6,450 nt of DNA, from IMG/VR virus record IMGVR_UViG_2698536403_000004; one strand, written 5' to 3'. Made by a program: the position numbers and the translations under genes. Each line of letters opens with the position of its first letter. Position 1 is the first letter of the stretch. The DNA comes from a virus (Duplodnaviria > Heunggongvirae > Uroviricota > Caudoviricetes). Shown here piece by piece: positions 532 to 6,450 of the stretch. The notes under the pieces were generated by a model, which saw nothing but the letters and a program-made list of their open reading frames with translations, had not been told where the DNA came from and searched no databases.

Positions 532-723
532 TTAAAGACCTGCCGGGATTTCGATATTATCCTGGTGAATAACTTTATCGACCGGGTAACAGTTACCGGG
601 AATTTTCTGTTCGGTTGCTGCAGTCATACACTCCTGCATTGTCCTGTGAACACTGACTGCAATATCAACTGGCTCTCCGGAAACAAGAAAAACTGTCAGA
701 ACAAGTGCAAATGCTGTATTCAT
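532..723 (-). CDS. Small protein (63 aa) with hydrophobic N-terminus (signal peptide or TM) and two Cys in the C-terminal part
   Basis: ATG at 723 preceded by AAGGA 8 nt upstream; start overlaps the stop of the upstream gene in an ATGA junction (721..723 / 720..722), suggesting translational coupling. Track ORF 532..777 trimmed to the RBS-supported start. Product MNTAFALVLTVFLVSGEPV... Confidence 0.45.
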   Translation of the reverse strand: MNTAFALVLTVFLVSGEPVDIAVSVHRTMQECMTAATEQKIPGNCYPVDKVIHQDNIEIPAGL

Positions 724-908
724 TGCCAGCATCCTTTTTGTATCGGACGTAAACGGGCCAGCATTGAAAGAATGCATATTTTATTTAATAACTCCCGTTC
801 GTGTTTTCTCTTGTTAATGGCATCTTCAGTAAATACAGGGTTACTGATAGTGACACCAATTTCAAAACAACCTTCAGACGTATTAACGTTTGGTAATAAC
901 GTTTCCAT
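720..908 (-). CDS. Small hypothetical protein (62 aa)
   Basis: ATG at 908 with GAGGA 7 nt upstream; track ORF 720..1013 begins at a non-ATG start with no RBS, so the internal ATG is preferred. Product METLLPNVNTSEGCFEIGVT... Confidence 0.45.
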   Translation of the reverse strand: METLLPNVNTSEGCFEIGVTISNPVFTEDAINKRKHERELLNKICILSMLARLRPIQKGCWQ

Positions 909-1073: not shown

Positions 1074-1475
1074 CTTTAAAAAGGGCGGCAGAGCAGCCAC
1101 GGAGTAAAACTGATACCGCCAAACGTCACCAGAAAATTGATAACAGAGGGCGTTGCAGCGGGGTTGTCACTTAAGCGTATGGTCAACCTGACAACCCGAT
1201 GTCCTCAACGGGGAAGGAATAACCCCGCCATACTTACCGCCGCGCCATTTCGCGGAGTGCCACAACCGGAAGCGCACGGTCGACGAAAATTTAACGACAG
1301 GTTATCTATGAACCAGCTACCTCGCCGTGCGCTTTCGCGTTATGGTCTGACTTTTCATGGAAATATCCTTTCAGTAAACTGTCAGTGCCGGATGCTCACC
1401 CGTGTCCGGCGCACGCACTCCACCTCACCCGTGGAGAACTCCTTAATTACCAACCTTAGCTTCGTTGGTTAGCTA

Positions 1476-2794: not shown

Positions 2795-3076
2795 ATGGAA
2801 GAATTAAGAATATTTCTCAATTCTCTTTCGTCAGATGAACAGCGTATGTTTGCATGCGAGTGTGGTACCAGCATCGGTTATCTAAGAAAGGCATTGAGTA
2901 AAGGTCAAGTGTTAGGGGCATCGTTATGTGTCCTTATTGAGCGAGCCAGTAATGGTGAAGTTACACGTCAGCAACTAAGGCCTTTTGATTGGATGAATAT
3001 TTGGCCCGAGCTGGAAGATACCAAAACGTTAACACAACCACTTTCTAGGAGCTTGATTCATGAAAATCAAGCATGA
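2795..3076 (+). CDS. ydaS: Cro-like HTH regulator of the YdaS type (93 aa)
   Basis: AAGGAG 6 nt upstream of ATG; divergent from the repressor; protein pattern ...CGTSIGYLRKALSKGQ...IERASNGEVTRQQLRPFDW resembles the YdaS/Cro-like family as I remember it; not verified by search. Confidence 0.55.
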   Translation: MEELRIFLNSLSSDEQRMFACECGTSIGYLRKALSKGQVLGASLCVLIERASNGEVTRQQLRPFDWMNIWPELEDTKTLTQPLSRSLIHENQA

Positions 3077-3485
3077 ACACATCCGCATGGCGATGAATGC
3101 CTGGGCGCGTCCTGATGGCGAAAAAGTTCCAGCAGCTGGAATAACCCAGGCTTATTTTGAGTTGGGTATAACGTTTCCTGAACTGTATGACGACAGCCAT
3201 CCGGAAGCCCTGGCTCGCAATACACAGAAAATTTTCCGCTGGGTAGAGAAAGACACCCCTGATGCTGTTGAAAAAATTCAGGCGTTGTTACCAGCGATCG
3301 AAAAGGCAATGCCACCTTTGCTGGTGGCCCGAATGCGCAGCCACAGTTCAGCCTATTTTCGGGAGCTGGTGGAGACGCGGGAACGACTGGTGAGAGACGC
3401 TGATGATTTTGTCGCAGTGGCGATTGCCGGTTTCAATCAGATGAACCGTGGTGGCCCTGCAGGAAATGCCGTGGTGATGCACTAA
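3060..3485 (+). CDS. ydaT: YdaT-like protein (141 aa), in the cII-equivalent position
   Basis: AGGAG 8 nt upstream of ATG at 3060; overlaps the preceding gene by 17 nt; N-terminus MKIKHEHI matches my recollection of YdaT family proteins; follows the Cro-like gene as in Rac-type prophages. Confidence 0.5.
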   Translation: MKIKHEHIRMAMNAWARPDGEKVPAAGITQAYFELGITFPELYDDSHPEALARNTQKIFRWVEKDTPDAVEKIQALLPAIEKAMPPLLVARMRSHSSAYFRELVETRERLVRDADDFVAVAIAGFNQMNRGGPAGNAVVMH

Positions 3486-3493
3486 AAGCACGG

Positions 3494-3715
3494 ATGGCGT
3501 TAACAATGACGGAGGGGGCTGTGAATCTACCTGATTTTTTTACTGTTCTTGCCTGTGGTATTGGTGGGGCTCTGGCCGGACATTTTATCGTGAATCTGTT
3601 CACCTGGTATCTCTTTGGTTTCAGGGATTACTTCACCCGATGGACTTTAAATTGTCTTCGTCGGTTCATTGGGCGCAAGCCTGATATGAGGATTTGGAAA
3701 GATGAAAAACGCTGA
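3494..3715 (+). CDS. Small hydrophobic protein, one predicted TM segment (65-73 aa depending on start)
   Basis: ORF with TM-like stretch FFTVLACGIGGALAGHFIVNLFTWYLFGF; the best RBS (GGAGG, 5-nt spacer) precedes GTG at 3521 rather than ATG at 3494; stop lies 4 nt from the stop of the convergent minus-strand gene. Confidence 0.4.
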   Translation: MALTMTEGAVNLPDFFTVLACGIGGALAGHFIVNLFTWYLFGFRDYFTRWTLNCLRRFIGRKPDMRIWKDEKR

Positions 3716-3719
3716 TTGT

Positions 3720-4115
3720 TTATGGCATCGGGAGGCCGTTTTTCTCCCGATATCGCTCGATCTCTGCCTGAATTGCTGCAACAGCACACATGGAGTCGTA
3801 CTGGATCAGTCTGAGATTTTCAATCGTGAATTTGTCTTCCTCCATCAGGTTGAGCATACGAAAGTATCGAAAGACGTAAACTTCTGGGCCGCTGACACCA
3901 TACCCCTTTGCCTTCGATATGGTTTGGTGGAGCTCCCATTCTTTCAATGCGAGGGTGAGAGCCATTTCTCTTATTTTTGCTCTGGCTTCAGCAGCCCGGC
4001 GTTGCGCTTCAATGGTTCGTTCCGATTTGCGTTGCCAGGCACCATTAACCAGCGAAACCACGCCAGCAACACACGCACTCAACACAACGCTACTTGTGAT
4101 AGTTGCAAAATCCAT
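3720..4115 (-). CDS. Membrane-anchored protein (131 aa): N-terminal TM helix followed by a basic, helical cytoplasmic domain; moron-like, function unknown
   Basis: ATG at 4115 with GAGGAGG 6 nt upstream; TATAAT (complement of 4155..4160) upstream on the minus strand; product MDFATITSSVVLSACVAGVVSLVNGAWQRKSERTIEAQRRAAEARAK...; positive residues after the TM place the C-domain in the cytoplasm. Confidence 0.65.
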   Translation of the reverse strand: MDFATITSSVVLSACVAGVVSLVNGAWQRKSERTIEAQRRAAEARAKIREMALTLALKEWELHQTISKAKGYGVSGPEVYVFRYFRMLNLMEEDKFTIENLRLIQYDSMCAVAAIQAEIERYREKNGLPMP

Positions 4116-4194
4116 TTCGAACCTCCTCTGGTTCTGTTGATTAGTGAATCACAGATTATAACCAGAGGAAGGTTTGGCTCCAGACGAGGTGAAC
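4116..4194. promoter_or_regulatory. Divergent promoter/RBS region between the moron and the replication gene, with an imperfect inverted repeat (4121..4133 vs 4160..4173)
   Basis: Minus strand: TATAAT then GAGGAGG then ATG. Plus strand: possible TGTTGA -35 and TATAAC -10, then GAGG 5 nt before ATG 4195. CCTCTGGT / ACCAGAGG form an exact 8-bp inverted repeat. Confidence 0.4.
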
Positions 4195-5280
4195 ATGCGT
4201 GATTATGCAAAAGTTTCCCCGCGATTCTGGCTGGGAGAAACGGGGAGAGAACTTAGAAAGGCGGGTGCAGAAGCGCAAGTTGTTGCTTTTTACCTGATGA
4301 CATCCCCTCACGCAAATATGTTGGGTTTGTATTACCTGCCAGTTTTGTACCTTGCTCATGAAACCGGGCTTGGTCCGGAAGGGGCTTCGAAGGGGCTTAA
4401 AAGGGCTGTTGAAGCTGGTTTTTGTAGCTATGACCATGATGCCGAGATGGTCTGGGTCCATGAAATGGCAGCCTGGCAGGTTGGGGAAACGTTGAAGCCT
4501 GGAGATAACCGTTGTGCAGGTGTCAGGAATGAGTATGCATCATTACCTGAAAACGCCTTTCTGTCAGCCTTTTACGACAGATATAAAACGGATTTCCATC
4601 TGGATGTGAGGCGGAATAATCGCCGGAATTCAGCAAGGGGCTTCGAAGAGGCTTTAAAGGGGCTTCTAAGCCAAGAACAGGAACAGGAGAAAGAACAGGA
4701 GCAGGATAAAAATACTATGCTTCATGGCGAAAAAATCGCCACGAACCAGGCAGGGGATGTTCAGAACGTCAATCCTGGTCAGCCAGCAGGCACGACACCG
4801 GAAGCCGATTCGGGCGCTGTGCAGCAGGCGATGACCGCAAGGCCGGAACAATCACACCAACTGCAGCAGCCTGAAGCCGATTCCGCCATTCAGCGGGAAG
4901 CCGATCAGGTAGTCCCGGAAAACACCGGGCAGCCTGTGGGACGAGTGGATTATCCGGATGTGTTCGAACAGGTCTGGCGGGAATACCCGTTGCGTGCCGG
5001 AGCAAACCCGAAGAAATCCGCTTTCAGTGCCTGGAAGGCCAGATTACGCGAGGGGGTGCCACCAGAGGCCATGCTGGATGGCGTGAGGCGTTACGCAAGA
5101 TACCTGGCGACTACCGGGAAAACGGGAACGGAATTTGTTCAGCGAGCGACGACGTTTTTTGGACCGGACCGGAATTTTGAAAACCCCTGGTTGCTCCCGG
5201 TAAGCGGCACGAACAACCAGCGTTGTGTGAATCATGTTTCTGAACCGGATACCGAAATTCCGCCAGGCTTCAGGGGGTAA
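4195..5280 (+). CDS. Putative replication initiation / replisome-organiser-type protein (361 aa; YdaU/O-position analogue), with a low-complexity acidic Q/E-rich linker
   Basis: ATG at 4195 with GAGG 5 nt upstream (in-frame TTG at 4174 is an alternative); sits where O-type genes lie; C-terminal segment DYPDVFEQVWREYPLRAGANPKKSAFSAWKARL...FFGPDRNFENPW resembles conserved phage replication-protein C-terminal domains as I remember them; unverified. Confidence 0.55.
   Translation: MRDYAKVSPRFWLGETGRELRKAGAEAQVVAFYLMTSPHANMLGLYYLPVLYLAHETGLGPEGASKGLKRAVEAGFCSYDHDAEMVWVHEMAAWQVGETLKPGDNRCAGVRNEYASLPENAFLSAFYDRYKTDFHLDVRRNNRRNSARGFEEALKGLLSQEQEQEKEQEQDKNTMLHGEKIATNQAGDVQNVNPGQPAGTTPEADSGAVQQAMTARPEQSHQLQQPEADSAIQREADQVVPENTGQPVGRVDYPDVFEQVWREYPLRAGANPKKSAFSAWKARLREGVPPEAMLDGVRRYARYLATTGKTGTEFVQRATTFFGPDRNFENPWLLPVSGTNNQRCVNHVSEPDTEIPPGFRG
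4379..4666. repeat. Short direct repeats inside the replication gene: AAGGGGCTT at 4379, 4390, 4635 and 4657, including an exact 14-mer AAGGGGCTTCGAAG at 4379..4392 and 4635..4648
   Basis: Read directly; two pairs about 250 bp apart; further repeats GAACAGGA x3 (4675..4700) and GAAGCCGAT x3 (about 4801, 4874, 4898) lie in the linker. Confidence 0.6.
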
Positions 5281-5320: not shown

Positions 5321-5746
5321 GTGGCAAAAGTTTTTACACAAGAAGAGCGAGAAAAAATTAAAGGGCAGGTTGTTGAGCTAGTACGCCGGAGTGGGCGCGA
5401 GACGTTACGGCAACTGGAAGCCAAGACAGGTGCGACAAGATATCTGATGAGCGTTCTCGCCAGAGAGCTGGTTGCCAGTGGTGATGTATACAACTCTGGT
5501 TACGGGTTATTCCCGTCTGAACAGGCTCGTAAGGACTGGCAAAACGCCCGCAAAAAACTCTCAAGGGCAAAGCTGAAGAAAAAAACACCTGTGGTTGATC
5601 CGGACCTTATCTGGTCGTTACCAGACGGAGAAATACGTCGTTATGACAGGCGTCAGAACATAATCTGTAGCGAGTGCCGGAAGAGCGAAGTTATGCAGCG
5701 CGTGCTGGCGTTTTATCAGGGGAATTTTCAGGAGGTGGTGCTGTGA
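5321..5746 (+). CDS. Hypothetical protein (141 aa), possible winged-helix-like N-terminus
   Basis: GTG start at 5321 preceded by AGGAGGG (short 4-nt spacer); long ORF co-directional with the replication gene; product MAKVFTQEEREKIKGQVVELVRRSG... Confidence 0.5.
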   Translation: MAKVFTQEEREKIKGQVVELVRRSGRETLRQLEAKTGATRYLMSVLARELVASGDVYNSGYGLFPSEQARKDWQNARKKLSRAKLKKKTPVVDPDLIWSLPDGEIRRYDRRQNIICSECRKSEVMQRVLAFYQGNFQEVVL

Positions 5747-5803
5747 GTGAAATTAGCTATCAGGCTTCAATTGCCGCTGGCATTCGCATCAAAGGAGAGG
5801 AGC

Positions 5804-6160
5804 ATGGAAATAAAACCAGAAGATGAGTTAAGTAATATTGTTTTATTTCCGGTAAAAGAGGATGACCCACGTAATCAGGTTAATTTTCTTTATGAGCCAT
5901 CGGAAAGACCATATTGTCATCACGCCTCTGTCCGGGTTGACGAAAAAGAGCGTCAGGTCCGCTGTAAAATCTGCGGTGCAGTTGTGGAGCCATTTGACTG
6001 GATGCTCTCTGTGGCGAAAAGAGAAACCAGACTGGCAGATGATGTAAGGCTCTTGCGCCAGGAGGAACGGGAAAGGCGGAGAAATATAGAAAAGCTAATT
6101 CAGATTGAGCGTAACGCGAAAGCGCGGATACGCAGGGCGGCAAAATCAAGAACTGAATAA
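5804..6160 (+). CDS. Hypothetical protein (118 aa) with a possible zinc-ribbon (C-H-H...C-x2-C) and a basic coiled-coil C-terminus
   Basis: ATG at 5804 with AAGGAG 6 nt upstream (the track's GTG start at 5747 lacks an RBS); product MEIKPEDELS...YCHHASVRVDEKERQVRCKICG... Confidence 0.5.
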   Translation: MEIKPEDELSNIVLFPVKEDDPRNQVNFLYEPSERPYCHHASVRVDEKERQVRCKICGAVVEPFDWMLSVAKRETRLADDVRLLRQEERERRRNIEKLIQIERNAKARIRRAAKSRTE

Positions 6161-6245: not shown

Positions 6246-6450
6246 GTAAGCGTGCAGCAAGAACCGTATTGACGGGGATGTGTTATTCAGTCGGCAGTGC
6301 TACGCGCCAGGGGAGCAGTTCGCCGACCCGGCGTTACGGTCGTCACGAACGTAGGTCCATAACCGCCCGGTCTTCGTTTTCTTATTGCCTGGCAACAGCA
6401 CCGGGACAGGCGTGTCATCAGCATGGAGCTTACCGTCAGTCAGCACATAG
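6246..6450 (-). mobile_element. IS66-family insertion sequence remnant: terminal GTAAGCG end at 6246 and an internally deleted transposase; continues past the window
   Basis: Minus-strand translation gives ...HADDTPVPVLLPGNKKTKTGRLWTYVRDDRNAGS, matching the middle of IS66-type transposases as I remember them, then jumps in another frame to a C-terminal-like tail ...ELLPWRVALPTE-stop; the plus strand carries GTAAGCGTGCAGCAAGAACCGTATTGACGG at 6246, consistent with the 5'-GTAA terminal repeat of this family. Confidence 0.55.
6283..6449 (-). pseudogene. IS66-family transposase fragment with a large internal deletion and frameshift (junction near 6315..6327)
   Basis: N-terminal/middle homology ends after RDDRNAGS (about 6324); the C-terminal tail is read in a different frame (6286..6327) and ends at the stop 6283..6285. 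Confidence 0.5.

Follow-up and report, generated by a model that had tools for sequence, protein, structure and literature searches.

A minus-strand gene at positions 3720..4115 of the window, the whole 6,450-nucleotide stretch of the Caudoviricetes record IMGVR_UViG_2698536403_000004 analysed here, is very probably PD-lambda-6, a known single-gene anti-phage moron, borne by a Rac/Qin-like lambdoid prophage within its early-right operon. The defence-moron inference that had been drawn from raw sequence is correct, and the system itself is already known. The present analysis adds an account of the PD-lambda-6 slot, its expression cassette and the neighboring small open reading frame (ORF), and casts doubt on the published lipoprotein label.

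Identity and coding status of the minus-strand gene

The 131-codon ORF, which starts at an ATG at 4115-4113, is the sole minus-strand gene in the region from a YdaS-like gene (2795) to a zinc-ribbon gene (to 6160), and its stop is separated tail-to-tail by 4 nt (3716-3719) from that of a small plus-strand ORF. The other features that the sequence-only reading had described around it were also present: a minus-strand Shine-Dalgarno (SD) sequence GAGGAGG (4122..4128) followed by a 6-nt spacer, TTCGAA, before the ATG, and a perfect TATAAT hexamer upstream (4155..4160, minus strand). Pairwise comparisons between copies with saturated synonymous sites (dS 1.4-1.9) gave a dN/dS of 0.03-0.15 for the 131-aa frame. 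This coding frame is real, not a product of chance, and is under strong purifying selection. Because this selection fits the minus-strand frame, an antisense plus-strand ORF at 3702-4202 was rejected as a gene and treated as its shadow.

Although the product had not been recognised from the sequence, its family is already represented in PADLOC and in PHROG 36733, to which the 131-aa protein was assigned. The protein matched the PADLOC PD-Lambda-6 model PDLC04020 from end to end (all 131 residues, covering model positions 1-131 of 131; E 9.2e-90, 295.6 bits) and was 100% identical to RefSeq WP_000344866.1. The ORF has the length given for the published PD-lambda-6 ORF, 131 aa, and the gene in the window appears to be another PD-lambda-6 copy that differs in nothing substantive, its identity to the tested allele being judged from ORF length and from the fit to the HMM. 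The match to a validated defence system therefore supports the reading of this gene as a defence moron, and as one already known; the superinfection-exclusion or abortive-infection role that had been proposed for it agrees with the validation of PD-lambda-6 against lambda-vir by others. Pfam and NCBIfam searches returned no match for the 131-aa protein or for the product of the small ORF, and a PDB sequence-profile search gave a best E value of 0.23. No catalytic or pore-forming domain was recognisable in PD-lambda-6 by Pfam, profile and fold searches, and tblastn of the protein against 50,697 isolated phage genomes gave no match.

Vassallo et al. (2022, Nat Microbiol) described PD-lambda-6 as a single-gene defence system of lambdoid prophage origin from Escherichia coli UMB6655 (RRK48647.1, annotated as hypothetical), selected with phage lambda-vir and validated in their Figure 3 without escape plaques. 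In that study, the UMB6655 allele reduced lambda-vir plaquing with adsorption unaffected, and it was cloned in the promoterless low-copy vector pCV1 together with ~258 nt of flanking native sequence at either end. Defence from a promoterless vector with this flank implies that PD-lambda-6 has its own promoter.

The cargo slot and its expression cassette

The gene sits in a swappable cargo cassette (3486..4106) that extends from the ydaT stop codon just into the coding sequence of the cargo. On the left it is flanked by ydaT, the cII-equivalent (3060..3485, plus strand; Pfam YdaT_toxin, E 7e-10, and RefSeq annotation), and on the right by a replication gene for a DnaD-like helicase loader or replication initiator (4195..5280, plus strand; PHROG 1701, E 1e-144), the RefSeq start of which corresponds to position 4195. 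The cassette borders were taken from an alignment with an ECs1072-type locus (L002), in which identity of ~92% stops ~9 nt into the cargo ORF and directly after the ydaT stop.

The presence/absence variation expected of cargo was found across related prophages. Of 5,426 complete E. coli genomes, 17 had the PD-lambda-6 module. The slot was occupied in ~1,660 E. coli genomes by the unrelated ECs1072 gene, which is preceded by the leftward promoter, SD and ATG that PD-lambda-6 also has. Replacement at sharp junctions, located at the ydaT stop and the cargo ATG, between otherwise collinear phage genomes, together with a -10 element and SD of its own, qualifies the gene as a moron. PD-lambda-6 occurred in four different backbones, always between cro/cII-type and replication genes, and the remnant of a prophage in E. 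albertii retained an intact copy. The genomic settings of more distant relatives included prophages, an integrative element and the vicinity of a type I restriction-modification system.

The ECs1072 family phage-associated protein (NCBIfam NF033230) shares with PD-lambda-6 its slot, strand, promoter, SD and ATG, in DNA that is ~92% identical, but is an unrelated soluble protein of 151 aa with no PADLOC match and no adjacent small ORF. Homology between the two proteins was rejected (BLASTP E 4.5). Judging from these alignments, PD-lambda-6 would be driven by a leftward promoter/SD cassette that is common to an unrelated cargo gene in the slot. The defined hotspot and the shared expression cassette therefore make ECs1072, a gene that ~30% of complete E. 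coli genomes possess, a candidate for a role in defence.

The earlier suggestion of independent transcription was upheld in part. In its favor, the putative leftward cargo promoter has a perfect -10 hexamer that is conserved in position (transcription is predicted to start at ~4148), with A2, T3 and T6 retained in copies from Citrobacter, Trabulsiella, Salmonella and E. albertii, and the promoterless clone implies promoter activity within 258 nt. Against it, a consensus promoter scan found no full sigma-70 promoter upstream of PD-lambda-6, because the -35 element is weak. This -35-like element, CTGGAG in the window and TTGGTG in other copies, lies in a conserved block, TGGAGCCAAACC (4171..4182, minus strand), at the outer edge of the mobile module. 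Ten of the 12 positions of the block were invariant among dS-saturated copies, its motif was restricted to PD-lambda-6 and ECs1072 loci, and homology with other backbones ended just past it. A sigma-54 promoter reading of the conserved TGGnGCC block was rejected on inspection, the GC element being out of register.

The SD core was invariant in 8 loci from different backbones and is part of a conserved hairpin (4119..4175) that can form in RNA of either strand, the SD region (4119-4133) pairing with an anti-SD located within the spacer of the promoter (4160-4175). The hairpin includes an exact 10-nt inverted repeat and has a minimum free energy of -29.1 kcal/mol on the minus strand (z -3.7) and -33.3 kcal/mol on the plus strand (z -3.6). 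Across the 8 loci, 86.9% of cells in the hairpin columns were paired, versus 32-44% in slid controls, and compensatory changes were observed at 6 pairs.

Over the predicted transcription start lies a palindrome, TTGATTAGTGAATCA (4137..4151), made of YdaT operator half-sites; a search with the half-site pattern gave 3 matches versus 0.06 expected. The YdaT operator of CP-933P is TTGATT-N6-AATCAA (PMC9986795), and a perfect copy, TTGATTCATGAAAATCAA (3053..3070), is located at the end of ydaS and the start of ydaT, the same position as operator OM in CP-933P (PMC9986795). YdaT may also bind at the TTGATTAGTGAATCA palindrome, the spacing of which is N4, versus N6 in the CP-933P operator; in the ECs1072-type cassette the YdaT-like palindrome was not conserved. 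No intrinsic terminators were found flanking PD-lambda-6. One between the convergent genes was considered and rejected, with only a weak 5-bp stem at 3722-3739 and a count not above that of shuffled sequence, and the nearest minus-strand terminator-like site was inside ydaT, at 3328-3311.

The convergent small ORF

The small membrane-protein gene on the plus strand (3521..3715) encodes 64 aa from a GTG at 3521, or 73 aa if translation starts at the ATG at 3494; the GTG, preceded by the ribosome binding site GGAGGGGG, is the better start. Its product corresponds to RefSeq WP_135247427.1 and was modeled as a single long helix (residues 3-50; pLDDT 70.6). The dN/dS of the small ORF was 0.13-0.18 between dS-saturated copies, and it is a real gene under purifying selection, albeit one that is often unannotated. 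It lay downstream of every close PD-lambda-6 copy that was read through that position and was intact beside these copies except for a frameshift in E. albertii. A further 251 E. coli genomes, as well as Stx1 phages, had the small ORF but lacked PD-lambda-6, and the small ORF also borders other opposite-strand cargo in the nin region. The view that the two genes form a cargo module therefore held insofar as the small ORF is real and adjoins close PD-lambda-6 copies, but not in making it a dedicated partner.

By coordinate mapping, the validated 912-bp clone probably also contained the small ORF, and it follows that a one-gene PD-lambda-6 system is not strictly proven. The functional unit could accordingly be the convergent pair, the small protein being made from pR and partnering or neutralising PD-lambda-6, either as a prophage-sparing antidote or as a holin/antiholin-like couple. 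We consider this unlikely. Besides the purifying selection on the small ORF and its place, by coordinates, within the clone, such a unit would be consistent with the adjacency of the two genes in four different backbones (4 nt tail-to-tail where gene calls were available) and with small-residue motifs in the membrane helices of both proteins. PD-lambda-6 homologues of 45% identity from Enterobacter, which lie in a different prophage region, likewise face a convergent small ORF that encodes a membrane helix and a basic tail; this 46-aa ORF, however, had no detectable sequence similarity to the 64-aa ORF, and homology between the two was rejected. Co-occurrence is also not obligate, given the copies beside unrelated cargo, and in E. 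albertii PD-lambda-6 is intact where the small ORF is frameshifted. Furthermore, the small ORF has no evident promoter in the promoterless clone, and PADLOC models PD-Lambda-6 as one gene.

A broader and distinctly unlikely scheme treats the site between the cII-equivalent and replication genes as a regulated plug-in cassette, in which the YdaT palindrome over the start site and the anti-SD, by sequestering the SD, would silence unrelated cargo of the lysogen (PD-lambda-6, ECs1072) once the prophage turns lytic, and the small membrane protein made from pR would be the cognate neutraliser of PD-lambda-6. If true, this would constitute built-in self-immunity avoidance in a lambdoid defence moron, and ECs1072 and the nin-region cargo beside the same small ORF would become candidate defence genes.

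Membrane topology, mode of action and known systems

The AlphaFold model of PD-lambda-6 (pLDDT 86.6) has helices at residues 3-70, 77-92 and 98-126, with the membrane helix at about residues 3-28. The single N-terminal transmembrane helix predicted earlier is borne out by the uncharged stretch F3-Q28, which is followed by RKSER, and by the continuous modeled helix 3-70. The cytoplasmic domain, which had been called basic and helical, is helical in the model but only slightly basic (18 K+R versus 16 D+E). As modeled, PD-lambda-6 is bitopic, with an N-terminal helix, positive charges and then a three-helix domain of ~100 residues, for which no fold relative was found. Since RKSER follows the hydrophobic stretch, the positive-inside rule predicts a cytoplasmic C-terminus, that is, an N-out/C-in topology, with only two residues predicted to face the periplasm.

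This topology differs from the published description: Vassallo et al. (2022) list "a lipoprotein" among the features, and two later papers citing that work call PD-Lambda-6 lipoprotein-related or lipoprotein-containing. Under that label, the protein would be cleaved and lipidated at Cys15, and a periplasmic or outer-membrane helical domain would block genome injection from outside the inner membrane. The sequence L12-S-A-C15 does conform to the lipobox pattern [LVI][ASTVI][GAS]C, and an injection block would suit a periplasmic domain, yet we regard this alternative as very unlikely. The N-terminus, MD, lacks the K/R n-region of lipoproteins, and Cys15 is followed not by a polar mature N-terminus but by 13 more uncharged residues and then RKSER. 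Cys15 occurs in only 4 of 21 family sequences, all copies of at least 83% identity, and is replaced by G, I, A, L, T, V or H in 17 of 17 more distant members; in the AlphaFold model the unbroken helix 3-70 spans it. Within the original HHpred table, PD-lambda-6 matches were confined to the membrane-helix region, and the only related hit, LapA_dom (lipopolysaccharide assembly protein A domain), covers the membrane helix and may be the origin of the label. The published label is probably wrong, and the target of the bitopic protein is therefore to be sought at the cytoplasmic face of the inner membrane, not in the periplasm.

In a lysogen with pR off, the leftward promoter would make PD-lambda-6 constitutively, and after a lambda-like phage adsorbs, the cytoplasmic domain might detect or impede an early step that takes place at the inner membrane. 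An abortive or holin/RexB-like action on the membrane is possible and is tentatively favored over a block of DNA entry, itself somewhat unlikely, because only two residues are predicted to be periplasmic. Upon induction, rightward transcription from pR would run antisense through PD-lambda-6, and YdaT may bind the start-site palindrome, switching the gene off.

Canonical lambdoid genomes had been said to pass directly from the cII-equivalent to the replication gene. Lambda itself, however, has a leftward promoter at the position of the slot, pO for oop RNA, and the slot therefore has some precedent in the lambdoid layout. In both phages the leftward promoter abuts the start of the replication gene and reads antisense into the cII-equivalent region, but the transcript in the window encodes a protein and has no sequence homology to its lambda equivalent. 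That this transcript is mainly regulatory, an oop-like antisense RNA against the end of ydaT or the small-ORF message with the protein secondary, is highly improbable: the promoter matches pO in position and orientation, and no intrinsic terminator follows the PD-lambda-6 stop codon before the candidate in ydaT, but the protein is under strong purifying selection, has a strong SD and, according to the published account, a protein-level defence phenotype, and the lambda oop region had no sequence similarity on inspection.

HK97 gp15, P22 SieA and T4 Imm are membrane superinfection-exclusion proteins from phage morons. By analogy, PD-lambda-6 would resemble them as a small prophage-encoded membrane protein that is expressed in the lysogen and acts after adsorption. 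No sequence or fold similarity to these proteins was detected, and PD-lambda-6 differs in its predicted topology, which leaves hardly any of the protein in the periplasm. PD-lambda-6 resembles holins in having a charged tail after the membrane helix, and the original HHpred table gives Phage_holin_2_4 at 87% over 32 columns only. The Pfam holin model had no match to the protein in the window and reached E 0.0012 in 1 of 21 family members, so that the resemblance to holins extends no further than the membrane helix and lies below Pfam thresholds. Membrane-level abortive infection is represented by lambda RexAB, SieB and lactococcal AbiZ. By contrast, PD-lambda-6 consists of one protein of 131 aa and lacks a RexA-like sensor; like these systems, it is prophage-borne, membrane-located by prediction and excludes lambdoid phages.

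Identity and published function of the 131-codon gene

The minus-strand 131-codon ORF at 3720-4115, its Shine-Dalgarno (SD) sequence GAGGAGG (4128-4122, minus strand, 6-nt spacer to the ATG) and its perfect -10 hexamer TATAAT (4160-4155, minus strand) were all found where a sequence-only reading of the window had placed them, as was the convergent plus-strand small ORF, which ends at 3715, 4 nt from the stop codon of the 131-codon gene. Both frames were considered real genes because dN/dS was low at saturated synonymous divergence (0.03-0.15 for the 131-aa frame and 0.13-0.18 for the small ORF, each compared with the Citrobacter, Trabulsiella and E. albertii copies). No family for the 131-aa protein was found in Pfam or NCBIfam. 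The same reading had not recognised this protein, but it is recognisable: PADLOC model PDLC04020 "PD-Lambda-6" was matched over its full length (E 9.2e-90, positions 1-131 of 131), and PHROG 36733 (unknown function) was matched as well. The protein is 100% identical to RefSeq WP_000344866.1, and its exact sequence is present on at least 1,000 E. coli and Salmonella contigs. By sequence, the window gene is PD-lambda-6, and the HMM match and ORF length point to the same allele as the tested RRK48647.1.

PD-lambda-6 is an already known gene, one of the 21 systems that Vassallo et al. 2022 identified (PMC9519451), and novelty is therefore low. The additions made here are modest and testable, namely the hotspot junctions, the shared promoter/SD/hairpin cassette, a YdaT-like palindrome, the conserved small ORF and a doubtful lipoprotein label. 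The published entry gives E. coli UMB6655 as the source (RRK48647.1, ORF 426209-426605, cloned region 425952-426863) and lists the system as "Hypothetical", validated (Figure 3), from a sub-library peak and without escape plaques (PMC9519451). According to that study's account of its systems, they were cloned with native promoters in the promoterless, low-copy destination vector pCV1, left adsorption unaffected and lowered plaquing of the selecting phage, lambda-vir for PD-lambda-6; for this gene, a short native fragment was shown to protect against lambda-vir at a stage after adsorption (PMC9519451).

Protein family, topology and possible mode of action

The PD-lambda-6 family is very small: a search of 5.8 billion proteins yielded 8 clusters at 90% identity, and one of 1.84 billion yielded 27 representatives at E <= 1e-3. 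Members range from 110 to 140 aa and have in common a hydrophobic helix at the N-terminus, the motif QR(K/R)xE and the pattern RE(L/M)AL..A..EW(E/K)xH...P.(V/I)Y..(R/H)Y...(L)ME. No solid Pfam domain was found in any member, and the PDB held no sequence relative. Homologues with 45% identity each stand alone on the opposite strand, between the lysis and terminase genes of an Enterobacter prophage (L021-L023; also L013). The upstream DNA of these homologues and the Salmonella copies have the words TTGGTG..AACCTTC..GATACTCT in common. One distant member adjoins a type I restriction-modification system on an element that also carries an integrase and MobA, and another (about 20% identity) lies in the Trichlorobacter thiogenes chromosome (L024 6001-7358). 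At the latter locus, two small multi-pass membrane proteins (135 and 134 aa) follow on the same strand, with a WGR/DUF4132 gene nearby.

The AlphaFold2 model of PD-lambda-6 (pLDDT 86.6, 26 sequences) has a helix at residues 3-70, comprising the membrane segment and a stalk, followed by helices at 77-92 and 98-126. This predicted fold amounts to a membrane-anchored three-helix domain, in line with the N-terminal TM helix and helical domain originally proposed. The uncharged stretch F3-Q28 lies between MD and RKSER, and the positive-inside rule therefore predicts an N-out/C-in topology. PD-Lambda-6 has been called a lipoprotein system in two later papers (bioRxiv 2024.10.26.620412; PMC11381338), and the window protein does carry LSAC at residues 12-15. 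The original HHpred table gives weak matches only, over the membrane segment (LapA_dom 87.5%, Phage_holin_2_4 87%); the one entry in it related to that label is LapA_dom, the lipopolysaccharide assembly protein A domain, which aligns to the membrane helix (PMC9519451). Because the window protein is missing a basic n-region, its hydrophobic run extends beyond the Cys of LSAC, and this Cys is missing in 17/17 family members below 83% identity, the N-terminal segment would be a membrane anchor rather than a lipoprotein signal, and the lipoprotein label appears doubtful.

No enzymatic domain was found in PD-lambda-6. The protein is membrane-anchored, and its soluble domain is predicted to be cytoplasmic; lysogens would express it constitutively, and its site of action would be the inner membrane, on the cytoplasmic face. 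The mode of action that we tentatively favour is sensing and then perturbation of the membrane, through abortive or holin/RexB-like action. It was preferred over a block of DNA entry, which we regard as rather unlikely, because almost nothing of the protein is predicted to be periplasmic.

A replaceable cargo slot and the convergent small ORF

The proposal that the gene is acquired cargo was borne out by presence/absence variation across related prophages. Region 3400-4300 was found in full in 17 of 5,426 complete E. coli genomes, and its flanks only were matched in about 1,660, where an unrelated gene of the "ECs1072 family" (151 aa, same strand) fills the slot between ydaT and the replication gene. 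In these genomes, as at L002 3293-3748 (minus strand), the ECs1072-family gene has the same promoter, SD and ATG as PD-lambda-6. At L002, DNA identity with the window is about 92% leftward from the replication gene via the conserved block, -10, SD and ATG, and stops about 9 nt inside the cargo ORF; the opposite junction lies directly after the ydaT stop codon. Given these sharp junctions on both sides, 3486-4106 is a replaceable cassette behind a common expression cassette. This replacement, the full-length PADLOC match and the published defence against lambda-vir together support the proposed cargo and defence role of the window gene. The ECs1072 protein is soluble in appearance and had no PADLOC match; its genomic position makes the ECs1072 gene a candidate cargo or defence gene expressed in the lysogen.

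PD-lambda-6 and the small ORF were also found in other backbones, directly after P22_Cro/YdaS in Salmonella and Citrobacter and after a pRha-like gene in another prophage, with differing replication modules downstream. In E. albertii (L017-L020 and L005, beside icd), PD-lambda-6 (83% identity) has stayed intact in a decayed prophage remnant, except in L005, where it is frameshifted. The gene was absent from the 50,697 isolated phage genomes searched.

The better start of the small ORF is GTG 3521, preceded by GGAGGGGG, which gives 64 aa and agrees with RefSeq annotation WP_135247427.1. Its model (pLDDT 70.6) shows one long helix over residues 3-50, and the tail is basic. The small ORF lies within the validated 912-bp clone by coordinate mapping, and it was found downstream of every close PD-lambda-6 copy readable through that position, with a 4-nt gap wherever gene calls exist. 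That it is a partner of PD-lambda-6 is nevertheless improbable, because it occurs with other cargo, is frameshifted in E. albertii (in a GGGG run, adjoining an intact PD-lambda-6 outside L005), and has a dissimilar counterpart in Enterobacter, where the 3' end of the 45%-identical homologues is overlapped by a convergent 46-aa ORF (membrane helix and basic tail) with no sequence similarity to it. Far from being exclusive to PD-lambda-6, the small ORF has an 84%-identical, mostly unannotated copy in 251 further E. coli genomes, and it is also present after ninE in Stx1 phages AU6Stx1 (unannotated, L027 3001-3174) and SH2026Stx1 and in related prophages (likewise L032-L034). The convergent cargo that follows it at these loci varies (590 or 600 aa; 209 + 158 aa; 275 + 310 aa), and the 590-aa protein had no Pfam or PADLOC match. 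The small ORF seems to be a border marker of opposite-direction cargo islands.

Prophage setting and the shared expression cassette

The window comes from a Rac/Qin-like lambdoid prophage of E. coli and represents its immunity and early region. Leftward features are DUF1482 (532-777), DicB (720-908, minus strand, Pfam E 1.7e-37), the DicF sRNA (1083-1134, minus strand, Rfam RF00039, 75 bits versus a gathering score of 48), a YdfC-like gene (1476-1694), DUF1391 (1854-2090) and a DicA/RacR-like repressor (2275-2694). Rightward genes encode a YdaS-like HTH protein (2795-3076), YdaT (3060-3485), a DnaD-like replication protein (4195-5280), DUF977 (5321-5746) and a zinc-ribbon protein (5747-6160), and an IS66-family transposase fragment (6300-6446, minus strand, Pfam DDE_Tnp_IS66, E 4e-9) occupies the right end. 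As in the Qin prophage, the leftward genes form a cell-division-inhibitor operon of the dicB type; an STnc100 match below threshold (37.7 bits versus 47) overlaps 876-1085. The closest complete genome (L001, strain PG20180057) has other genes in place of the IS66 fragment. In this same prophage, ABC-three-component-system genes and a DUF2326 gene (L001 6919-8901), about 2 kb downstream of the replication genes, are probably a second defence locus of the prophage type.

A simple consensus scan called no complete sigma-70 promoter upstream of PD-lambda-6 because the -35 is poor (CTGGAG). Across unrelated backbones, conservation begins at TGGnGCCrAACC, 11-22 nt upstream of the -10, and continues to the SD and ATG, with -10 positions A2, T3 and T6 invariant; among the 37 loci fetched, this block was confined to PD-lambda-6 and ECs1072 loci. 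The spacer sequence AACCTTCCTCTGG (4175-4161) can base-pair with the SD region (4133-4119). The resulting hairpin (4119-4175), in RNA of either strand, is indicated by folding (-29 to -33 kcal/mol, z about -3.6) and covariation, being kept in 8 loci with 86.9% of cells paired versus 32-44% in slid controls and compensatory changes in 6 pairs. Its role is a matter of inference. If transcription starts about 7 nt past the -10, the RNA would be without the anti-SD and translatable, and the full hairpin would be present in leftward read-through transcripts and in the rightward transcript from the early promoter pR.

In function, YdaT is the counterpart of lambda CII (PMC9986795). A perfect YdaT operator, TTGATTCATGAAAATCAA (3053-3070), spans the ydaS end and the ydaT start codon, the position equivalent to that of operator OM in CP-933P (PMC9986795). 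The palindrome TTGATTAGTGAATCA (4137-4151), with YdaT half-sites at N4 spacing, lies between the -10 and SD, over the predicted start site; a YdaT-type pattern is expected 0.06 times per window. This putative site suggests that YdaT made on induction may repress the cargo promoter. The ECs1072-type cassette has a degenerate version of the site, and in Citrobacter, which is without YdaT, its equivalent is TTGGTT-N6-AACCAA. In lambda, the leftward pO/oop promoter abuts the O gene, a place equivalent to that of the cargo promoter in the window.
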